From positions 1 to 9,677 of IMG/VR virus record IMGVR_UViG_2585427748_000017: 9,677 nt of DNA; one strand, 5' to 3'. The stretch comes from a virus (lineage: Duplodnaviria; Heunggongvirae; Uroviricota; Caudoviricetes). The notes beneath the pieces were generated by a model. That model was not told where the DNA came from and searched no databases. It worked only from the letters and a program-made list of their open reading frames with translations. Every line of letters starts with the position of its first letter. Positions within the stretch are counted from its first letter, which is position 1. Positions 1,851 through 9,677 of the stretch are shown one piece after another. The translations under genes were made by a program, and so were the position numbers.

Positions 1851-2357
1851 ATGGCCTTTTTATTGAATAAAAGTGATATGGCCTCCTCCATCGGTATCTC
1901 TGTTCAGGCATTTGATAAATGGGGCGTTCCTCCTGTTGAACGTCGGGGGAGGGAAGTTTTATATGACGTTAAAACTGTACTGGAGATAGATCGCGAGCGG
2001 CGACAACACAATCAGAGAACACCTGATGACGGGGGAGAACTGGAGGAAAGGCTGCTTCGGGCCAGAGCTGAACTGACAGAAGAACAGGCTGTAGCTCAAA
2101 AACTTAAAAATCAGGTAACCGAAGGTAAGCTCATCGATTCAGACTTCTGCGTTTTCGCCCTCAGCAAACTGGCGATGGCATTGTCCAGTACGCTTGATTC
2201 CATTCCGTTATCCATGCAGCGACAGTTCCCGGATTTAACGCCACGTCATATTGACCATCTGAAAACCCTTATTGCAAAGGGCGCAAATCAGTGTGCGCGG
2301 GCAGGGGATAAATTACCGGATTTGCTGGATGAATATATCAGAGCAACAACTGAATAA
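1851..2357 (+). CDS. nu1: terminase small subunit (lambda gpNu1 homologue)
   Basis: ATG 1851 preceded by GGAGAGGAG. Translation MAFLLNKSDMASSIGISVQAFDKWGVPPVERRGREVLYD... aligns with lambda Nu1 (winged-HTH N-terminus, ...FALSKLA...LPLSMQRQFPDLTPRHIDHLK..., C-terminus LLDEYI). The 3' end overlaps the gpA start as in lambda. The ORF-track start at 1746 lies in cosB and is rejected. Confidence 0.85.
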   Translation: MAFLLNKSDMASSIGISVQAFDKWGVPPVERRGREVLYDVKTVLEIDRERRQHNQRTPDDGGELEERLLRARAELTEEQAVAQKLKNQVTEGKLIDSDFCVFALSKLAMALSSTLDSIPLSMQRQFPDLTPRHIDHLKTLIAKGANQCARAGDKLPDLLDEYIRATTE

Positions 2358-4257
2358 TATGGTGGCCGCCGTTTCGGTTGCGCTGCAGCCTCTGGTCAGG
2401 GTTGTACCGATGACGGCAGTTGAATGGGCTGACCAGTATTATTATCTGCCGAAAGAATCCTCATACGGTGACGGCGAATGGAAAACGCTGCCGTTCCAGA
2501 TCGCCATCATGAACAGTATGGGGAATGATCAGATCCGCACTGTTAATCTGATTAAATCTGCCCGTGTTGGCTATACAAAGATGTTGCTGGGAGTCGCCGG
2601 GTATTTTATTGAGCATAAATCCCGAAACAGTCTGCTTTTTCAGCCCACGGATTCTGCCGCTGAAGATTTTATGAAGTCTCACGTGGAGGCGACGATTCGG
2701 GACGTGCCATGCCTGAAAGATCTTTCCCCGTGGCTGGGTCGTAAACATCGTGACAATACTCTCACGCTGAAACGCTTTTCATCGGGGGTGGGCTTCTGGT
2801 GCCTGGGTGGTGCGGCAGCAAAAAACTACCGTGAAAAATCCGTGGACGTGGTCTGCTATGACGAACTTTCCTCGTTCGAGCCGGATGTCGAAAAAGAGGG
2901 CTCGCCAACCCTGCTGGGGGATAAGCGTATTGAGGGCTCGGTATGGCCAAAATCCATTCGCGGCTCGACGCCTAAAATAAAAGGCTCCTGCCAGATCGAA
3001 AAAGCGGCCAACGAGTCGGCGCATTTCATGCGTTTTTATGTGCCCTGCCCGCACTGTGGGGAGGCGCAGTATCTGAAATTTGGCGATGAGTCCACGCCTT
3101 TTGGCCTTAAATGGGAGAAGGACAGCCCCGAAAGCGTTTTCTACCTCTGTGAACATCATGGCTGCGTGATCCATCAGTCTGAGCTTGACCAGAGCAACGG
3201 GCGGTGGATCTGCGAAAACACGGGGATGTGGACCCGCGACGGTCTGACGTTTTTCAGCGCCGCGGATAATGAAATTCCGCCGCCGCGCTCCATCACATTC
3301 CATATCTGGACGGCGTACAGTCCGTTCACCACCTGGGTACAGATTGTCTATGACTGGCTGGATGCACTGAAAGATCCCAACGGCCTGAAAACCTTTGTGA
3401 ACACCACGCTGGGCGAGACCTGGGAAGAGGCCGTGGGCGAAAAACTCGATCACCAGGTACTGATGGATAAGGTTGTGCATTACACGGCGGCGGTGCCTGC
3501 CCGGGTGGTTTATCTGACGGCGGGCATTGACTCGCAGCGAAACCGTTTTGAGATGTATGTCTGGGGATGGGCACCGGGAGAGGAAGCTTTTCTGGTGGAT
3601 AAAATCATCATTATGGGCCGTCCCGATGAGGAAGAGACGCTGTTACGTGTGGATGCGGCGATCAACAAAAAATACTGCCATGCAGACGGAACCGAAATGA
3701 CCATTTCCCGTGTCTGCTGGGACACCGGGGGGATCGATGGTGAAATTGTCTATCAGAGGTCAAAAAAACACGGTGTTTTCCGGGTGCTGCCGGTAAAAGG
3801 CGCATCTGTCTATGGCAAGCCGGTGATCACCATGCCGAAAACCCGCAATCAGCGGGGCGTTTATCTGTGTGAAGTGGGGACGGACACCGCAAAAGAAATT
3901 CTCTATGCCCGTATGAAAGCCGAGCCCACGCCTGCGGATGAAGCCACGTCGTATGCCATCCGTTTTCCTGATGATCCGGAGATTTTTTCGCAGACAGAGG
4001 CGCAGCAACTGGTCGCGGAAGAGCTTGTGGAGAAGTGGGAAAAAGGAAAGATGCGTCTGCTGTGGGATAACAAAAAGCGGCGTAACGAAGCGCTGGACTG
4101 CCTGGTGTATGCCTACGCGGCATTACGTGTGTCCGTGCAACGCTGGCAGCTTGATCTGGCTGTACTGGCAAAATCCCGGGAAGAAGAGACGACCCGGCCA
4201 ACCCTTAAAGAACTGGCAGCGAAGCTGTCCGGAGGAGTGAATGGTTACAGTCGCTGA
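2329..4257 (+). CDS. A: terminase large subunit (lambda gpA homologue)
   Basis: Collinear with lambda gpA over the full length (TAVEWAD..YYLPKESSY, GFWCLGGAAAKNYREKSVDV, GDKRIEGSVWPKSIRGSTPK, CPHCGE.QYLKFGD, HIWTAYSPFTTWVQIV, CWDTGGID, KRRNEALDC, RWQLDL). ATG 2329 (MNISEQQ) corresponds to lambda MNISNSQ; the TTG at 2272 listed in the ORF track is an upstream artefact. Stop TGA 4255-4257. Confidence 0.95.
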   Translation: MNISEQQLNNMVAAVSVALQPLVRVVPMTAVEWADQYYYLPKESSYGDGEWKTLPFQIAIMNSMGNDQIRTVNLIKSARVGYTKMLLGVAGYFIEHKSRNSLLFQPTDSAAEDFMKSHVEATIRDVPCLKDLSPWLGRKHRDNTLTLKRFSSGVGFWCLGGAAAKNYREKSVDVVCYDELSSFEPDVEKEGSPTLLGDKRIEGSVWPKSIRGSTPKIKGSCQIEKAANESAHFMRFYVPCPHCGEAQYLKFGDESTPFGLKWEKDSPESVFYLCEHHGCVIHQSELDQSNGRWICENTGMWTRDGLTFFSAADNEIPPPRSITFHIWTAYSPFTTWVQIVYDWLDALKDPNGLKTFVNTTLGETWEEAVGEKLDHQVLMDKVVHYTAAVPARVVYLTAGIDSQRNRFEMYVWGWAPGEEAFLVDKIIIMGRPDEEETLLRVDAAINKKYCHADGTEMTISRVCWDTGGIDGEIVYQRSKKHGVFRVLPVKGASVYGKPVITMPKTRNQRGVYLCEVGTDTAKEILYARMKAEPTPADEATSYAIRFPDDPEIFSQTEAQQLVAEELVEKWEKGKMRLLWDNKKRRNEALDCLVYAYAALRVSVQRWQLDLAVLAKSREEETTRPTLKELAAKLSGGVNGYSR

Positions 4258-4447
4258 ACTACAGGCGCTGCGTCAGGCGCGCCTTGATTTATTAACCGGT
4301 AAACGGGTGGTGTCTGTCCAGAAAGATGGTCGCAGAATTGAATATACGGCGGCTTCTCTGGATGAGCTTAACCGGGCGATCAATGATGCGGAGTCGGTAC
4401 TGGGGACAACCCGACGTCGCCGTCGTCCGCTGGGAGTGAGGTTATGA
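4241..4447 (+). CDS. W: head-tail joining / head completion protein (lambda gpW homologue)
   Basis: 68-aa ORF with GGAGGAG 4 nt upstream. MVTVAELQALRQARLDLLTGKRVVSVQKDGRRIEYTAASLDEL... matches lambda gpW (…[27 protein letters not shown]…). Overlaps the gpA 3' end; stop TGA 4445-4447 overlaps the B start (ATGA). Confidence 0.85.
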   Translation: MVTVAELQALRQARLDLLTGKRVVSVQKDGRRIEYTAASLDELNRAINDAESVLGTTRRRRRPLGVRL

Positions 4448-6036
4448 AACGAACGCCTGTCCTGATTGATGTGAACGGCGTTCCGCTTCGTGAGAGTCTC
4501 AGCTACAACGGGGGCGGCGCAGGATTTGGCGGGCAAATGGCGGAGTGGTTGCCACCGGCGCAGAGTGCCGATGCGGCCCTGCTACCCGCGTTGCGTCTGG
4601 GGAATGCCCGGGCAGATGATCTGGTGCGCAATAACGGAATAGCGGCTAATGCGGTGGCTCTGCATAAGGATCACATTGTCGGGCATATGTTTCTGATCAG
4701 CTACCGTCCGAACTGGCGCTGGCTGGGGATGCGGGAGACCGCAGCAAAAAGTTTTGTCGATGAGGTGGAGGCGGCCTGGTCGGAATACGCCGAAGGGATG
4801 TTTGGTGAGATCGACGTGGAAGGAAAACGCACGTTCACGGAATTTATCCGTGAAGGTGTGGGCGTTCATGCGTTTAACGGCGAAATCTTTGTGCAGCCGG
4901 TCTGGGATACGGAGAGTACGCAACTGTTTCGTACGCGTTTTAAAGCCGTGAGTCCGAAACGGGTGGACACGCCTGGACACGGTATGGGGAACCGTTTTCT
5001 GCGGGCCGGTGTGGAGGTCGATCGATATGGCCGTGCCGTCGCGTACCATATTTGTGAGGACGATTTTCCGTTCTCTGGTAGTGGACGATGGGAACGGATC
5101 CCGCGTGAACTTCCCACCGGGCGTCCGGCCATGCTGCATATTTTCGAGCCGGTGGAGGACGGGCAGACCCGTGGAGCCAATCAGTTTTACAGCGTTATGG
5201 AACGGCTGAAGATGCTGGATTCCCTGCAGGCAACACAGCTTCAGTCGGCCATAGTGAAGGCGATGTATGCAGCGACGATTGAAAGTGAACTTGATACCGA
5301 AAAGGCCTTTGAATATATCGCCGGTGCGCCGCAGGGGCAGAAGGATAATCCGCTTATTAATATTCTGGATAAGTTCTCCACCTGGTATGACACGAATCAC
5401 GTGACGCTGGGCGGTGTCAAAATTCCGCACCTTTTCCCCGGTGATGATCTGAAACTTCAGACCGCGCAGGATTCAGACAATGGATTTTCGGCGCTTGAAC
5501 AGGCGCTGCTGCGGTATATCGCCGCCGGTCTTGGCGTTTCCTACGAACAGTTGTCCCGTGATTACTCGAAGGTCAGTTATTCAAGTGCCCGCGCCTCCGC
5601 CAATGAGTCGTGGCGCTATTTTATGGGGCGGCGAAAATTTATTGCGTCCCGGCTGGCCACGCAGATGTTTTCCTGCTGGCTGGAAGAGGCACTTCTTCGG
5701 GGGATTATTCGTCCGCCACGGGCACGGTTTGATTTTTATCAGGCGCGATCAGCCTGGTCACGGGCTGAGTGGATTGGAGCCGGAAGAATGGCCATTGACG
5801 GGCTCAAGGAGGTTCAGGAATCAGTGATGCGCATTGAGGCCGGACTGAGCACGTATGAGAAAGAGCTGGCGCTGATGGGCGAGGATTATCAGGACATTTT
5901 CCGCCAGCAGGTCAGGGAATCTGCAGAGCGGGAAAAAGCCGGACTCTCACGTCCGGTGTGGATAGCGCAGGCGTATCAGCAGCAGATAGCGGAGAGTCGC
6001 AGGCCGGAAGAGGAGACAACACCACGTGAGACGTAA
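4444..6036 (+). CDS. B: portal protein (lambda gpB homologue)
   Basis: 530-aa ORF collinear with lambda gpB ([140 protein letters not shown]). Confidence 0.95.
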
Positions 6037-7759
6037 TCTTTCACACATTATTGCCGCAGCATTCAATGAACCGCTGCTTCTGGAGCCCGCCTATGCGCGG
6101 GTTTTCTTTTGCGCGCTGGGGCGCGAGATGGGGGCAGCAAGTCTTTCGGTACCGCAACAGCAGGTACAGCTTGATGCTCCCGGAATGCTGGCTGAAACGG
6201 ACGAGTACATGGCCGGAGGTAAACGACCTGCCCGTGTTTACCGGGTGGTGAACGGTATTGCGGTACTGCCGATGAGCGGCACGCTGGTGCACCGGCTGGG
6301 GGGGATGCGGCCATTTTCCGGAATGACTGGCTATGACGGCATTGTCGCCTGTCTTCAGCAGGCAATGGCAGATAGCCAGGTGCGGGGCATACTGCTGGAC
6401 ATTGACAGTCCGGGCGGGCAGGCCGCCGGCGCGTTTGACTGCGCTGACATGATTTACCGCCTCCGTCAGCAGAAGCCGGTCTGGGCACTGTGCAATGACA
6501 CGGCCTGTTCTGCAGCCATGCTGCTGGCGTCGGCCTGCTCCCGACGGCTGGTTACCCAGACATCCCGTATCGGCTCCATTGGCGTGATGATGAGCCATGT
6601 CAGCTATGCCGGTCATCTGGCGCAGGCCGGTGTGGATATCACGCTGATTTATGCCGGGGCGCACAAGGTGGATGGCAATCAGTTTGAAGCGTTGCCGGCA
6701 GAGGTTCGCCAGGATATGCAGCAGCGGATTGATGCGGCGCACCGGATGTTTGCCGAAAAAGTGGCGATGTATACCGGGTTGTCTGTGGATGCGGTCACGG
6801 GAACAGAGGCCGCCGTTTTTGAAGGTCAGTCCGGCATTGAGGCCGGGCTGGCGGATGAATTAATCAATGCGTCGGATGCCATCAGTGTGATGGCCACGGC
6901 GCTGAACAGTAATGTCAGAGGAGGCACTATGCCGCAATTAACTGCAACGGAAGCCGCCGTGCAGGAGAACCAGCGAGTGATGGGGATCCTGACATGCCAG
7001 GAAGCGAAAGGACGTGAACAGCTTGCCACGATGCTGGCAGGGCAACAGGGCATGAGCGTTGAACAGGCCCGGGCGATTCTGGCCGCGGCGGCACCGCAGC
7101 AGCCGGTGGCATCCGCGCAGAGTGAAGCCGATCGCATTATGGCGTGTGAAGAAGCGAACGGTCGTGAACAACTGGCAGTAACGCTGGCGGCGATGCCGGA
7201 GATGACGGTGGAAAAAGCCCGCCCGATCCTGGCTGCTTCACCGCAGGCGAATGCCGGACCATCACTCCGTGATCAGATCATGGCCCTGGATGAGGCAAAA
7301 GGGGCTGAGGCGCAGGCTGAACAGCTGGCTGCCTGCCCGGGAATGACCGTGGAGAGCGCCCGGGCTGTGCTGGCTGCGGGATCAGGTACGGGGTCTGCCG
7401 GTGATCATACTCATGGTAATGGTATTCGTTGGCCAGGAGGCGGCGGTTCTGCGTTAGCATTTTATGATGGCGGTGGGTTCACTTATGTCCAGGATTCACA
7501 GTATCAAGTAAGCCCGGGGACTTCTTCCCGTAGATCGTATTATCAACGTATTCAGACACAGTCAGCAGGTGCTCATACCCACTCGCTGTCTGGTACTGCA
7601 GCAAGTTCTGGCGCACATGCACATACTGTAGGTATTGGTGCGCATACGCACTCCGTTGCGATTGGTTCACATGGACACACCATCACCGTTAACGCTGCTG
7701 GTAACGCGGAAAACACCGTCAAAAACATCGCATTTAACTATATTGTGAGGCTTGCATAA
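6026..7759 (+). CDS. C: chimeric ORF: gpC-like prohead protease (S49/SppA-type) with Nu3-like scaffold region, fused in frame near 7380-7400 to a side-tail-fibre (Stf-like) C-terminal His-box domain; likely a deletion remnant
   Basis: First approx 450 aa align with lambda gpC ([105 protein letters not shown], then the IMGIL..EA.GRE module). The last approx 125 aa (GDHTHGNG...[10 protein letters not shown]...[28 protein letters not shown]...[16 protein letters not shown]) carry repeated HxH motifs and the ending typical of lambdoid tail-fibre C-termini; the stop overlaps the tfa start (TAATG). GC content falls at the junction. The start is GTG 6026 (GAGGAG 10 nt upstream) overlapping the B stop; exact start uncertain. 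Confidence 0.75.
6929..7759 (+). CDS. nu3: nested in-frame internal start corresponding to lambda Nu3 scaffolding protein (here continuing into the fused tail-fibre domain)
   Basis: In-frame ATG 6929-6931 preceded by GAGGAGG (6918-6924) that is itself coding (R-G-G-T-M); this mirrors the lambda C/Nu3 arrangement (…SGGRM TKETQ…), where Nu3 starts inside C in the same frame. Expression not verifiable from sequence. Confidence 0.4.
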
Positions 7760-8343
7760 TGGCATTCAGAATGAGTGAACAAGCACGGACCATAAAAATT
7801 TATAATCTGCTGGCCGGAACTAATGAATTTATTGGTGAAGGTGACGCATATATTCCGCCTCATACAGGTCTGCCAGCAAACAGTACCGATATTGCACCAC
7901 CAGATATTCCTGCTGGCTTTGTGGCTGTTTTCAACAGTGATGAGGCATCGTGGCATCTCGTTGAAGACCATCGGGGTAAAACGGTTTATGACGTAGCGTC
8001 AGGGGACGAGTTATTTATTTCTGAACTCGGTCCGTTACCGGAAAATGTTACCTGGTTATCGCCGGAAGGGGAGTTTCAGAAGTGGAACGGCACAGCCTGG
8101 GTGAAGGATACGGAAGCAGAAAAAATGTTCCGGATCCGGGAGGCGGAAGAAACAAAAAACAACCTGATGCAGGTAGCCAGTGAGCATATTGCGCCGCTTC
8201 AGGATGCTGCAGATCTGGAAATTGCAACGGAGGAAGAAACCTCATTGCTGGAAGCCTGGAAAAAGTATCGGGTGTTGCTGAACCGTGTTGATACATCAAC
8301 TGCACCTGATATTGAGTGGCCTACGAACCCTGTCAGGGAGTAA
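7759..8343 (+). CDS. tfa: tail fibre assembly protein (Tfa; lambda Tfa / Mu U / T4 gp38 family)
   Basis: 194-aa [54 protein letters not shown]...[42 protein letters not shown], which I recognise as the Tfa proteins of E. coli lambdoid prophages. The start overlaps the upstream tail-fibre stop (TAATG), the usual stf-tfa coupling. Confidence 0.85.
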
Positions 8344-8391
8344 TCATTGGGATTATGCCGCAGCACGTCTTAAGCAAGAACGTGCTGCGGT
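8178..8391 (+). repeat. direct repeat copy A (tfa 3' end plus downstream hairpin); partner at 9227-9441
   Basis: By eye about 210 bp align between 8178-8391 and 9227-9441 at an offset of about 1049 bp with most positions identical, including the stop codon, TCATTGGGATTATGCCGCAG and the ACGTGCTGCGGTT hairpin arm. Exact identity not computed. Confidence 0.8.
8358..8390. other. perfect 11-bp inverted repeat (CCGCAGCACGT / ACGTGCTGCGG) with 11-nt loop, 15 nt after the tfa stop and 8 nt beyond the convergent methyltransferase stop; possible bidirectional terminator or recombination/junction element
   Basis: Left arm 8358-8368 and right arm 8380-8390 are exact reverse complements. A T6 run follows after a 10-nt gap on the + strand, so this is not a textbook intrinsic terminator. 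A near-identical copy with a 1-nt bulge occurs after the second tfa copy (9407-9440). Confidence 0.3.
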
Positions 8392-8397
8392 TGGATG

Positions 8398-9066
8398 CTA
8401 TTTTTTCCCTGAAGCGGAAAACATTACTACAGTACCTTGAACCTTGGTTTTAACATTCTCGAAATGCTCTGAGAGTATATGTGTTAAGCCTTCTTCGGAA
8501 TCTTTTGTGTTTGAAAAGATGCCTTTCTGATTGTAAATGCGCATCAGTTTTTGACCGAAGCTATTGTGCACAACTCCATCGCCAAGAATTGTGGCTCCGT
8601 ATAGAGTTCCATCGTCAGTTAAGGCCTGCGCCGCATTGCGTATTACACAGCTTTTTGTAGATATATTTCCAGGCAGGCAGTGAAGAAGGTAAAACATGGA
8701 AATGGAATCAAATTGACCATGTAACGCCGCGGGATAAGGTTCAAAAACATCATGGCTAATTTTATGTTTAATTTTTGATTCCCCAGCCCTTGTAGATGCC
8801 GCGTTCAGGCTAGCTTCGTTCAAATCCATTAAAGATATCAGACTACTCTCAGGTACGTGAGTAAGGTAAAACCCAGTTCCAACACCAATATCCAGATGGT
8901 TGTTACCTACATGTTCCAGAAAGTGTGGAAGAAGGTGTTCCTTTGTAGGACATCCCCATGCAAGCCGATTTGATACTCCCAAAACCCACCAGTCATAAAG
9001 CTTTAGGGTAAGTGGTGTGTAAATTTTAGCCCCATCATCTGTGTTTTTTTTCATTGATTTCACCAT
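8398..9066 (-). CDS. ybcY: class I SAM-dependent methyltransferase (Rossmann fold), YbcY-like prophage moron
   Basis: 222-aa minus-strand ORF with methyltransferase motif I LDIGVGTGFY, an acidic residue ending the next strand (SLMDLNE) and a motif II-like FDSISMFYLLHCLPG. No DPPY/NPPY motif, so not obviously a DNA N6-adenine methyltransferase. Visibly more AT-rich than the flanking tfa and head genes. The position between two tfa copies on the opposite strand matches tfaD-ybcY-tfaX in DLP12 as I recall it. The start may be the second ATG (9054, MKKNTDD) rather than 9066. Confidence 0.7.
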   Translation of the reverse strand: MVKSMKKNTDDGAKIYTPLTLKLYDWWVLGVSNRLAWGCPTKEHLLPHFLEHVGNNHLDIGVGTGFYLTHVPESSLISLMDLNEASLNAASTRAGESKIKHKISHDVFEPYPAALHGQFDSISMFYLLHCLPGNISTKSCVIRNAAQALTDDGTLYGATILGDGVVHNSFGQKLMRIYNQKGIFSNTKDSEEGLTHILSEHFENVKTKVQGTVVMFSASGKK

Positions 9067-9122
9067 GTTATAGTTTTATTTGTGAATTAAATCAATTATG
9101 GCGATGAATTACAAGGGGTTAA

Positions 9123-9392
9123 ATGCTGCCGCAGCATAGCGATATTGAAATAGCCTGGTATGCTTCGATACAGCAGGAGCCGAATGGCTGGAAGACCGTC
9201 ACCACACAGTTCTACATCCAGGAATTCAGTGAGTATATTGCGCCACTGCAGGATGCTGTAGATCTGGAAATCGCAACGGAGGAAGAAAGATCGTTGCTGG
9301 AGGCATGGAATAAATATCGGGTATTGTTGAATCGTGTTGATACATCAACTGCACCTGATATTGAGTGGCCTGCAAATCCTGTCAGGGAGTAA
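9123..9392 (+). CDS. tfaX: truncated tail fibre assembly protein copy (TfaX-like; C-terminal Tfa domain with unrelated 35-aa N-terminus)
   Basis: 89-aa ORF; the C-terminal 54 aa ([54 protein letters not shown]) are near-identical to the C-terminus of the 7759-8343 Tfa, while the N-terminus [35 protein letters not shown] is different. ATG 9123 with AAGGGG 4 nt upstream. Probably a remnant of a second tail-fibre cassette. Confidence 0.65.
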
Positions 9393-9441
9393 TCATTGGG
9401 ATTATGCCGCAGACACGTCGTATGCAGGAACGTGCTGCGGT
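9227..9441 (+). repeat. direct repeat copy B (tfaX 3' end plus downstream hairpin); partner at 8178-8391
   Basis: See copy A. The two copies bracket the opposite-strand methyltransferase gene. Confidence 0.8.
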
Positions 9442-9506
9442 TAGTTTGTGAGCTTTCGATAGTGGTTGTTATTTTTGCCCTTATTTGTTCCGGAGGCCAT
9501 GGTTCA

Positions 9507-9677
9507 ATGGTCCGTCTGCCCCCTGTGGTGATGTCAGCAAAATCAGCCACTGCGCGAACCACAATAGCCCGGGAAGATGCTGAAGATCACCAGGTAAAGC
9601 TATCAGCGCAGAAACTGGAAGAACTGCTCGCATCAATGGTTAAGGATGAGGTTGATCGCAATGATGGGATTTATTGA
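9507..9677 (+). CDS. hypothetical small protein (56 aa), charged and probably helical
   Basis: ATG 9507 with GGAGG (9493-9497) 9 nt upstream; translation MVRLPPVVMSAKSATARTTIAREDAEDHQVKLSAQKLEELLASMVKDEVDRNDGIY; stop TGA 9675-9677 at the window edge. The longer TTG-initiated ORF in the track (9396) starts inside the tfa repeat and is rejected. No family recognised. Confidence 0.35.
   Translation: MVRLPPVVMSAKSATARTTIAREDAEDHQVKLSAQKLEELLASMVKDEVDRNDGIY

Follow-up and report, generated by a model that had tools for sequence, protein, structure and literature searches.

A methyltransferase gene between two tail fibre assembly gene ends in a lambda-type prophage

We ask how a methyltransferase gene came to lie between two ends of the tail fibre assembly gene tfa, and whether this position allows it to be lost and gained. 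The locus closes the late (tail-fibre) operon on the right in a lambda-type prophage whose integration site in related genomes is ompW. We address both points with a window of 9,677 nt (the whole stretch of DNA analysed), whose copy of the prophage is defective. The arrangement is real and recombination-prone, but it is also common and already known from K-12. Our overall account, to which we assign a probability of about 0.8, is that a cargo unit lies between the end of the resident tfa and the scar of a second tfa allele, in a configuration prone to recombination, and that the enzyme is of a small-molecule or lipid type.

Anatomy of the repeats and of the unit between them

The features of the region are as follows.

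7759-8343, plus strand: tfa, tail fibre assembly, 194 aa, intact (open reading frame; Pfam Caudo_TAP; phrog_105)
8178-8393, plus strand: repeat copy A, the final ~165 nt of tfa and 50 nt of 3' flank with hairpin
8357-8391: hairpin A, stem of 11-12 bp and rich in G+C; tfa and the methyltransferase gene converge on it
8394-9226: cargo segment between the repeats, 41% GC (GC content; homology to Citrobacter and Salmonella)
8398-9066, minus strand: ybcY-family class I SAM-dependent methyltransferase, 222-aa open reading frame (Pfam; phrog_2132)
9067-9095, minus strand: sigma-70 promoter-like element TTGATT-17-TATAAC for the methyltransferase, read from the sequence
9122-9095: second promoter-like match TTAACC-16-CATAAT, an overlapping site found by consensus scan
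9123-9226, plus strand: 5' remnant of orfX, ~34 codons, phrog_3893-like, divergent from the methyltransferase
9227-9443, plus strand: repeat copy B, a 5'-truncated tfa (tfaX-like) with its stop at 9392, and hairpin B
9407-9440: hairpin B, stem as in hairpin A with a 1-nt bulge, then GTTAGTTTGT
9489-9677, plus strand: start of a DUF4376-domain pseudogene, the resident right flank (RefSeq on the identical UTI89 sequence)

A preliminary description of the locus had claimed direct repeats of about 210 bp derived from tfa 3' ends, and this is borne out by copies A and B, which are in direct orientation, about 90% identical with one indel, and 1049-1050 bp apart from start to start. Between 8178-8391 and 9227-9441 the identity is 193/215 (89.8%). 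The repeat search returned one direct-repeat family (8167-8363 and 9216-9412, 197 nt, 89%), which extends after a 1-nt indel into 8364-8392 and 9414-9442 (90%); the MAFFT alignment agrees, and the blastn E-value of 1e-79 between the copies shows that their likeness is not due to chance. Two blocks are perfectly identical, of 39 bp (8284-8322) and 35 bp (8329-8363). To the left of ~8178 and 9227 the flanks are unrelated and the homology ends abruptly, with the true left edge of copy B placed at ~9225-9227 by a three-way comparison including the Citrobacter homologue. The right limit of homology, 8393 and 9443, lies 2-3 nt past the hairpin.

Copy A belongs to an intact Caudo_TAP gene of 194 aa, whose 3' end it forms, and copy B represents the 3' 56 codons of a gene of the same family. 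The complete tfa product matches Pfam Caudo_TAP (PF02413) over residues 72-191 with 151.9 bits (E = 1.3e-44, above the gathering score) and phrog_105 with E = 1e-100. The tfaX-like reading frame scores 88.3 bits against Caudo_TAP and covers only profile positions 75-130 of 131, which identifies it as a C-terminal fragment; RefSeq likewise annotates the equivalent of 9216-9392 on the identical UTI89 sequence as a tfa fragment without N-terminus. The recurrence of the tfa 3' end and its hairpin about 1.05 kb downstream, within a truncated tfaX-like gene, was thus correctly recognized from the start. The region 8340-8420 folds as RNA with -30.8 kcal/mol (z = -4.5), and no T-run directly follows the stem of hairpin A on the 3' side of either strand.

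The repeats also account for the tfa fragment and the match to Rfam IS009 (RF02111) found beside ybcY in most E. coli genomes. In the window this family matches 8102-8300 with 223.8 bits, exceeding the gathering score of 117, and 9146-9349 with 112.5 bits, just under it. Both matches fall on the coding strand of tfa coding sequence, and we therefore interpret them as marking tfa rather than an independent RNA gene.

The content of the interval was originally described as a single AT-rich methyltransferase gene on the opposite strand. Strand and composition are correct (minus strand, 41.1% GC), but the gene is not alone: the interval also contains a divergent promoter region and ~100 nt from the 5' end of another cargo gene, the truncated orfX. 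The remnant of orfX is joined in frame to copy B, at a junction lying in patchy microhomology, which creates an 89-aa reading frame (9123-9392) whose match to phrog_3893 covers residues 3-37. Intact orfX encodes 79 aa and adjoins the methyltransferase gene in Citrobacter. Its homologues occur in the cargo regions of temperate phages, where those of the phages Ayreon and vB_EcoS-733R5 have no adjoining methyltransferase gene. RefSeq labels the equivalent of 9141-9221 in IAI39 as "DinI family" on the minus strand, with a translation that is only vaguely DinI-like; we read this stretch as the orfX remnant because its plus strand matches the 5' part of the 79-aa Citrobacter gene and phrog_3893.

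Methyltransferase and orfX form a unit of ~820 bp that exists independently of tfa. In Citrobacter the homology spans 8386-9209 at 92% DNA identity with orfX intact, and on a plasmid-like contig of Salmonella 8392-9123 at 88%, in both cases with no tfa nearby; these homologies end at most 8 nt from the inner edge of copy A. Within E. coli, the query 8394-9215 is present at an identity of at least 95% in 3844 of 5426 complete genomes (71%).

The morons of lambdoid phages, known from comparisons of HK97 and HK022, are extra genes between neighbours that are adjacent in related phages, with deviant base composition and their own promoter-like element. The methyltransferase gene had been regarded as a captured moron, and the evidence agrees with this. 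It is absent from collinear relatives (lambda, and 19 genomes in which tfa is followed by the same right flank). Its GC content of 41.1% is unlike that of its neighbours, compared with 47.9% in tfa and 56.3% in the head genes from terminase to protease (2272-7386). It reads leftward, antisense to the late operon, has a promoter-like element of its own, and belongs to the unit found free of tfa in Citrobacter and Salmonella. Unlike a typical moron, it lacks a clean terminator of its own: the sole structure at its 3' end is the hairpin that it shares with tfa, and on the methyltransferase strand this hairpin lacks a canonical U-tract. Likewise atypical is the homologous scar that flanks it, and hence the direct repeats.

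Presence and absence at the ompW prophage

In related genomes the DUF4376-domain pseudogene is followed by the split ompW gene, so that occupied and empty forms of one site can be compared. At least 645 genomes carry the stretch 7387-9677, cassette included, whereas the same ompW site in 19 complete E. coli genomes has tfa with only one copy of the repeat, next to the same right flank. The predicted presence/absence polymorphism is accordingly found among public genomes, with its boundaries inside the repeats. Four alleles without the cassette were inspected, and each changes from A-type to B-type bases within the identical 39-bp block. However, a single copy that is A-like on the left and B-like on the right is in itself no proof of a crossover between A and B, as in the full-length tfa of lambda, too, the body is A-like and the hairpin B-like. 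In 5426 complete E. coli genomes, a composite query detected no cassette-less allele with a DLP12-type right flank. The junction between protease and fibre genes at ~7387 had no match in this set or in the GTDB species representatives.

With ~216 bp, the repeats would be long enough for recombination by RecA or Red, and through them the 1049-bp unit could be lost, or gained by allelic replacement. At a divergence of 10-12%, mismatch repair should reduce recombination by RecA. One pair compared consists of strain 190693, which has no cassette, and Z0117EC0051, which has one: their right flanks agree at 1363 of 1364 positions and their left flanks over 1340 identical bases. All of the nearest relatives of 190693 at the locus (at least 11 genomes) carry the cassette, so that parsimony favours loss in this strain. 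Its tfa, however, contains a patch of 16 mismatches and two odd sites, which speaks for replacement of the allele by foreign DNA rather than for a simple intramolecular deletion, and for this reason we do not call a recent clean deletion between A and B in 190693.

We also have to consider that the cassette-less prophages are the older state and that a donor phage supplied the cargo through homologous allelic replacement. The incoming DNA would then have comprised the cargo, the tail of copy A and the left part of copy B, and the right crossover would lie within copy B. We regard this as plausible, though below even odds. It would fit the observation that the left part of copy B (9227-~9300) hardly varies and accompanies the cargo in every context, while the right part and its flank vary; in the window, the right part and flank are of the same type as the tail and flank of the cassette-less alleles. 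The latter comprise at least seven sequence classes on several chromosomal backgrounds, and the foreign-looking patch in 190693 points in the same direction. Against gain stand the cassette-bearing relatives of that strain and the numerical excess of occupied over empty alleles (645 to 19). Since gain and loss use the same repeats, this alternative contests only that the cassette is excisable, not the anatomy.

The invariance of the left part of copy B could further be taken to mean that it serves as a built-in homology arm, by which any lambda-type tfa may gain or lose the cargo. If so, one RecA or Red event would acquire or shed the cargo, and exchange of host range through the tail fibre would be mechanically coupled to cargo turnover across E. 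coli prophages; we consider this reading unlikely. The idea that the right part of copy B is always the end of the resident tfa fails in PhiR26_1, where the sequence after 9347 is unlike Tfa. As it does not read as Tfa, we interpret this end as a further illegitimate truncation.

Origin of the second tfa end

Over 55-58 codons, copies A and B differ with dS = 0.41 and dN/dS = 0.15-0.18. Both values indicate that the copies diverged as working genes, and we therefore interpret copy B as the scar of a second tfa allele and not as a local duplication. At the right-hand junction a cargo gene has been fused illegitimately to tfa. A tail-fibre module with downstream cargo may have recombined illegitimately into the resident tfa, or, as an equivalent route, an internal deletion may have occurred between two tail-fibre modules; either would leave a 3' tfa scar. 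In the window orfX is cut after about codon 34 and joined at microhomology to the end of the second, diverged tfa allele with its hairpin. The preliminary description saw here a cassette exchange that left a moron between two cassettes. This stands insofar as the substitution pattern identifies distinct tfa alleles, but the right end is not a clean cassette end.

The junction between cargo and copy B is identical in K-12, O157, IAI39, PhiR26_1, 2G7b, PhiR68_2 and the window, and such identity across seven contexts suggests a single ancestral event. The outer limits, on the other hand, differ by context: the right end of copy B lies at 9347, 9369 or 9443, and the homology on the left starts at 7905, 8223, 8352 or 8358.

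The 89-aa product of the in-frame fusion might be a working OrfX-Tfa C-terminal protein kept by selection. The reading frame is intact in the window and in genomes matching at 100%, phrog_2341 spans its full length, and K-12 has a listed promoter-like site for tfaX (PMC3946193). The listed -10 element, however, overlaps the ATG, so that the start codon may escape transcription. Moreover, the equivalent frame is interrupted by a stop codon in K-12, has lost 7 nt in IAI39 and 2G7b, and breaks off beside an IS66-family element in O157, and RefSeq labels it a pseudogene. Maintenance by selection is thus very unlikely. As a weaker variant of the homology-arm reading, the fusion could be expressed and act on fibre assembly.

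That the repeats are a local duplication, made by target duplication or unequal crossover when the methyltransferase inserted and followed by decay of copy B, might be suggested by two direct copies of equal length near each other. The differences between them are mostly synonymous, however, the opposite of what is expected of a decaying pseudogene; copy B joins the interior of orfX instead of the end of the cargo; and the sequence type of its left part differs from every full-length tfa allele examined. We regard this origin as most improbable. Scarcely credible is a relic of an invertible alternative tail-fibre segment of the Gin/Cin/Pin type: phage PhiR68_2 does carry a Pin-type recombinase between tfa and methyltransferase, but in the window the two tfa ends are direct rather than inverted, no recombinase reading frame is present, no inverted crossover sites or inverted repeats flank the segment, and copy B abuts a cargo gene and not a fibre gene.

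The enzyme and comparison with known systems

The true start of the methyltransferase is likely Met5 at 9054, which would give a protein of 218 aa: this residue is invariant in 29 homologues, mostly of 218-220 aa, and the alignment to phrog_2132 (E = 4e-157) begins at residue 5. Pfam Methyltransf_12, 23, 25 and 11 all score above their cut-offs. The protein has the Rossmann-like domain and the glycine-rich SAM-binding motif of class I SAM methyltransferases, with D59, G61, G63, T64 and G65 invariant and V62 nearly so among the 29 homologues. Its AlphaFold2 model (pLDDT 89.8) shows strands alternating with helices, and in Foldseek many SAM methyltransferases match it with probability 1.0. Its 50 nearest neighbours in the PDB are methyltransferases of lipids, phosphoethanolamine, juvenile hormone acid and natural products. 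Fold and family suggest a small molecule or lipid as substrate class rather than DNA. The enzyme matches no DNA methyltransferase family in Pfam, NCBIfam or PADLOC, and the motif (D/N/S)PP(Y/F/W) is not seen in its sequence. A role in defence or DNA modification, for which PADLOC, NCBIfam and structural comparison give no significant support, was accordingly rejected, and we note as a caution that ybcY, as modelled, does not look like a DNA-modification enzyme. Enterobacter and Salmonella have chromosomal homologues at 56-65% identity that stand alone; beside these distant homologues there are no informative gene partners.

The TTGATT-17-TATAAC element has exactly the sequence of the promoter that is listed in K-12 as constitutive for ybcY and lies in a spacer flagged as H-NS bound (PMC3946193). 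Expression of the methyltransferase probably starts from this sigma-70 promoter-like element of its own, within AT-rich DNA bound by H-NS.

In lambda, the 3' end of stf and tfa share ~92% DNA identity with the window, and orf-194 is equal in length to the window tfa. The same hairpin lies ~15-50 nt past its stop, differing from that of the window by one compensatory change (C:G to A:U). The cargo of the window starts directly after this hairpin, where the b region of lambda begins, and the leftward accessory gene ea47 occupies a position equivalent to that of the methyltransferase. Lambda differs in having neither ybcY nor a second tfa fragment.

The same methyltransferase with the same truncated tfa on its right (97-99% identity) occurs in the inducible lambdoid phages PhiR26_1, PhiR30_1, PhiR29, 2G7b, ev243 and PhiR68_2. 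As these have complete genomes and named propagation hosts, the module is phage-borne. In these phages the end of copy B lies at 9347 or 9369, and beyond it come either a hydrolase gene and ompT or appY. Copy A is likewise a mere remnant (from 8223) in 2G7b, behind a different fibre set, and in PhiR68_2 pin and ynaE separate tfa from the cargo.

The closest parallel is tfaD-ybcY-tfaX (ybcX) of prophage DLP12 in K-12, with the same three-part order and strands and an identical junction between orfX and tfa; in K-12 DH1, 7905-9369 of the window is matched in one blastn piece at 96.9%. The genes are all pseudogenes in DLP12, where tfaD lacks its 5' part, ybcY carries a frameshift and tfaX is interrupted by a stop codon; copy B stops at 9369 with a mosaic 3' part, followed by appY. 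In the window, by contrast, the tfa and methyltransferase reading frames are intact and copy B reaches through its stop and hairpin. The prophage site also differs, being argU for DLP12 and ompW for the relatives of the window. Recombination of such ends is itself established, as the 3' third (~200 bp) of lambda tfa recombines via Red with both DLP12 tfa copies, ybcX and a linked unnamed fragment, both of which were noted in 2004 (PMC545071). With the arrangement annotated in K-12 and tfa-end recombination shown experimentally in 2004, the locus opens no new question. It offers instead a countable example of lambdoid prophages trading tail-fibre modules and dragging cargo along, in which an old tfa scar supplies the direct repeats of the cargo, and occupied and empty alleles are both visible in public genomes.

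The tfa repeat and its hairpin

By its ORFs and profile matches, the window corresponds to a lambda-type prophage's late region. Rz/Rz1 and a DUF3950 gene come first, then both terminase subunits (small before large), W, portal and an S49 (gpC-type) protease. Distal to the protease lie the stf 3' end, tfa, a methyltransferase ORF on the minus strand and an ORF of 89 aa of which the C-terminal two-thirds are Tfa-like.

Features of the repeat region, with the lambda counterpart of the hairpin
8178-8393, plus: copy A of the direct repeat, the last ~165 nt of tfa and 50 nt of 3' flank
8357-8391: hairpin A, 11-12 bp G+C-rich stem in the tfa 3' flank, just past the stop codon
8398-9066, minus: methyltransferase ORF (ybcY family)
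9227-9443, plus: copy B of the direct repeat, a 5'-truncated tfa
9407-9440: hairpin B, in copy B
9489-9677 and beyond, plus: DUF4376-domain pseudogene 3' of copy B, with an internal stop and the N-terminus missing
Lambda (L019), about 2197-2231: the same hairpin after lambda tfa

A repeat search of the window returned one long direct repeat (8167-8363 / 9216-9412, 89%), which resumes past a 1-nt indel (8364-8392 / 9414-9442, 90%) at a spacing of 1049-1050 bp. The alignment is upheld by MAFFT, the two copies match in blastn at E = 1e-79, and the sequences flanking the repeat on the outside are unrelated. Over the extent that the preliminary description had assigned to the repeat, identity is 193/215 (89.8%), including perfect blocks of 39 bp (8284-8322) and 35 bp (8329-8363). 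The tfa gene is intact (194 aa, the length of lambda orf-194; Caudo_TAP E = 1e-44). That its 3' end and hairpin recur as the end of a truncated tfaX-like ORF agrees with RefSeq, in which the identical UTI89 sequence of copy B is labelled a tfa fragment without N-terminus.

Over 58 shared codons the copies differ with dS 0.41 and dN 0.07, and the low dN/dS (0.15-0.18) implies that selection at the protein level acted on both during most of their divergence. In its left part, copy B is likewise unlike every full-length tfa compared (the window's own and those of lambda, PhiR26_1, PhiR68_2, O157 and K-12). Local duplication as the source of the repeats is therefore rejected: the copies are two diverged tfa alleles.

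The flank of copy A folds at -30.8 kcal/mol (z = -4.5). One stem pair that is C:G in the window is A:U in lambda, altered on both sides so that pairing is kept, and a 1-nt bulge is common to copy B and lambda. This conservation after lambda tfa indicates that lambda-type tfa genes naturally carry the hairpin at their 3' end; its candidate roles are a late-operon 3' end or an RNA stabiliser.

Several annotations overlap the repeat. Against a gathering score of 117, Rfam RF02111 'IS009' matches the plus strand with 223.8 bits at 8102-8300 and with 112.5 bits at 9146-9349. Both stretches belong to the coding sequence of tfa and lie on its coding strand, and IS009 is here a marker of tfa gene fragments, not a separate RNA gene. 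The Shigella sRNA family CssrB gives a weak, sub-threshold match at 8327-8389, overlapping hairpin A. A 45-aa ORF (8316-8453, plus strand) runs across the tfa stop and hairpin into the methyltransferase gene's 3' end, to which it is antisense. RefSeq calls its product hypothetical, or 'nucleocapsid protein' in one K-12 derivative; the ORF is probably not a genuine gene.

The cargo between the copies

A single opposite-strand, AT-rich methyltransferase gene had been described between the copies. The minus-strand ORF and the low GC content (41%, vs 48% in tfa and 56% in the terminase-to-protease head genes, 2272-7386) stand, but the segment also holds the 5' remnant of a second cargo gene, orfX. 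The 89-aa ORF opens with ~34 codons (9123-9226) of non-tfa sequence, which match phrog_3893. They also match the start of a 79-aa gene that in Citrobacter freundii is intact and oriented divergently from the methyltransferase; homologues of this small gene occur in cargo regions of numerous temperate phages. Compared base by base, the window tracks the Citrobacter gene through 9224 (TCCAGGAA) and tfa from 9227 (CAGTGAG), the join falling within a patch common to both parents (CAGG.A...AG). The orfX::tfa junction is illegitimate, of microhomology type, and in frame by chance. The cargo/copy-B junction does not differ among the seven contexts compared, which implies a single origin. The RefSeq label 'DinI family protein' for a fragment in IAI39 (L008 4748-4828; window 9141-9221, minus strand) looks mistaken; against it, the plus strand of 9141-9221 matches the 5' end of the real 79-aa Citrobacter cargo gene.

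Homology to the window extends over 8386-9209 in Citrobacter (92% DNA identity) and 8392-9123 in a plasmid-like Salmonella contig (88%), in both cases with no tfa nearby. These limits place the left edge of the cargo at the inner edge of copy A, within 8 nt, and 5-12 nt past the end of the methyltransferase coding sequence. Where homology ends on the outer sides depends on context. Copy B ends at 9347 in O157, IAI39, PhiR26_1 and 2G7b, is mosaic from about 9302 and ends at 9369 in K-12 and PhiR68_2, and in its window-type form extends to 9443, stop codon and hairpin included. The left-hand start of homology likewise differs (7905, 8223, 8352 or 8358). In 2G7b, copy A itself is just a 121-nt remnant behind a different tail-fibre gene set, so tail-fibre replacement has left tfa 3' scars around the cargo on more than one occasion. 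The diverged alleles, the discrete cargo and the repeated scars support the earlier interpretation as tail-fibre cassette exchange with cargo between.

In O157:H7 Z563 (L007 1294-3507), a manganese-catalase, two ferritin-like and a general-stress-protein gene lie between a tfa and the methyltransferase; PhiR68_2 (L012 1854-3027) has ynaE and the gene for a Pin-type invertase there. Window homology resumes in each case within or just before the hairpin (8352 and 8358). Other cargo has repeatedly inserted at this site by the tfa hairpin.

For the methyltransferase, four Pfam families of class I SAM methyltransferases exceed their cut-offs, and phrog_2132 (unknown function) matches at E = 4e-157. 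Homologues with 56-68% identity are widespread in Enterobacterales, those of Enterobacter and Salmonella being stand-alone chromosomal genes in non-phage surroundings. An AlphaFold2 model built from 29 homologues (pLDDT 89.8) is closest to bacterial phosphatidylethanolamine N-methyltransferase and juvenile-hormone-acid methyltransferase, as well as to phosphoethanolamine and natural-product methyltransferases (TM-scores 0.53-0.65, sequence identities 13-21%). Sequence searches gave weak matches only, of the same small-molecule or lipid kind, and PADLOC returned nothing meaningful for this protein. Fold model and sequence thus point to a small-molecule or lipid type enzyme and not a DNA methylase, a refinement of the preliminary description. 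A promoter-like TTGATT-17-TATAAC lies upstream (9095-9067, minus strand); the same sequence is listed for K-12 as a constitutive promoter of ybcY, situated in a spacer flagged as H-NS bound (PMC3946193). Since the -10 element of the window's copy directly adjoins the first ATG of the ORF, Met5 (9054) is invariant among homologues and the PHROG profile alignment begins at residue 5, the true start within 9054-9066 (minus strand) is probably 9054, giving a 218-aa protein. A literature search found no functional study of ybcY.

Distribution, cassette-less alleles and prophage state

The inter-repeat query (8394-9215) is found in 3844 of 5426 complete E. coli genomes at >=95% identity, in 1-4 copies each. 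The segment 7387-9677 occurs in at least 645 genomes, at 100% identity in those listed (UTI89, S88, APEC O1 and the type strain); the UTI89 prophage is located within ompW, adjoining yciE-trp. A split ompW follows the DUF4376 pseudogene in related genomes, which suggests the attachment site there.

Presence/absence polymorphism of the cassette had been predicted, and the comparison across genomes bears this out, with boundaries in the repeats. A 642-nt composite query joined the unique 5' part of tfa to the right flank, halves that meet only if the cassette is missing. It was fully covered in 19 genomes over 870 bp, i.e., the query plus one 228-bp repeat copy. These empty alleles form at least seven sequence classes in differing chromosomal backgrounds. 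In the four inspected, the prophage occupies the same ompW site and tfa is directly followed by the DUF4376 pseudogene. Their single copy is A-type (or within full-length tfa allele variation) up to 8283-8303 and B-type at every informative site from 8323 on, placing the switch within the 39-bp perfect block.

A given empty allele may reflect a deletion or an allelic replacement, and the change may have run in either direction. The empty strain 190693 and cassette-bearing Z0117EC0051 are identical at 1363/1364 positions of the right flank and for 1340 bases on the left, and the closest relatives of 190693 at the locus all bear the cassette. Past these 1340 bases, tfa of 190693 shows a patch of 16 mismatches, and two sites in the strain's single repeat copy depart from the expected A/B pattern. 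Lambda's own tfa combines an A-like body with a B-like hairpin, so a hybrid single copy alone is not diagnostic. A composite query made for the DLP12-type flank found no empty allele in 5426 genomes.

In a single 577-aa ORF (6026-7759), the S49 (gpC-type) head protease continues into the terminal ~124 codons of the side tail fibre gene (stf), with the fusion junction near 7386/7387. The prophage thus lacks the capsid genes through most of stf and is defective. Searches of the 5426 complete E. coli genomes and of GTDB species representatives did not find this junction. Independent deletions of like kind are seen in strain 300709 (a terminase::fibre fusion) and TW14425 (a short stretch joining head genes to tail gene and tfa).

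Comparison with known arrangements

The same module is present in phages PhiR26_1, PhiR30_1, PhiR29, 2G7b, ev243 and PhiR68_2. In lambda, tfa and its hairpin are followed next by ea47, a leftward gene of the b region. K-12 DLP12 (tfaD-ybcY-tfaX) matches window 7905-9369 at 96.9%. Poteete and colleagues found the ~200-bp C-terminal third of lambda tfa closely matched in K-12 by ybcX (now tfaX), a closely linked unnamed DLP12 fragment (now tfaD), tfaR and tfaQ, and showed by PCR Red-mediated recombination with both DLP12 copies and tfaR (PMC545071). Both the pair of tfa ends flanking ybcY and their capacity to recombine are therefore documented already. The preliminary observation and interpretation hold overall, with the refinement that at the right junction a cargo gene is fused to tfa. 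The finding is sound but adds little new: the locus is textbook phage mosaicism, matching the known K-12 arrangement.
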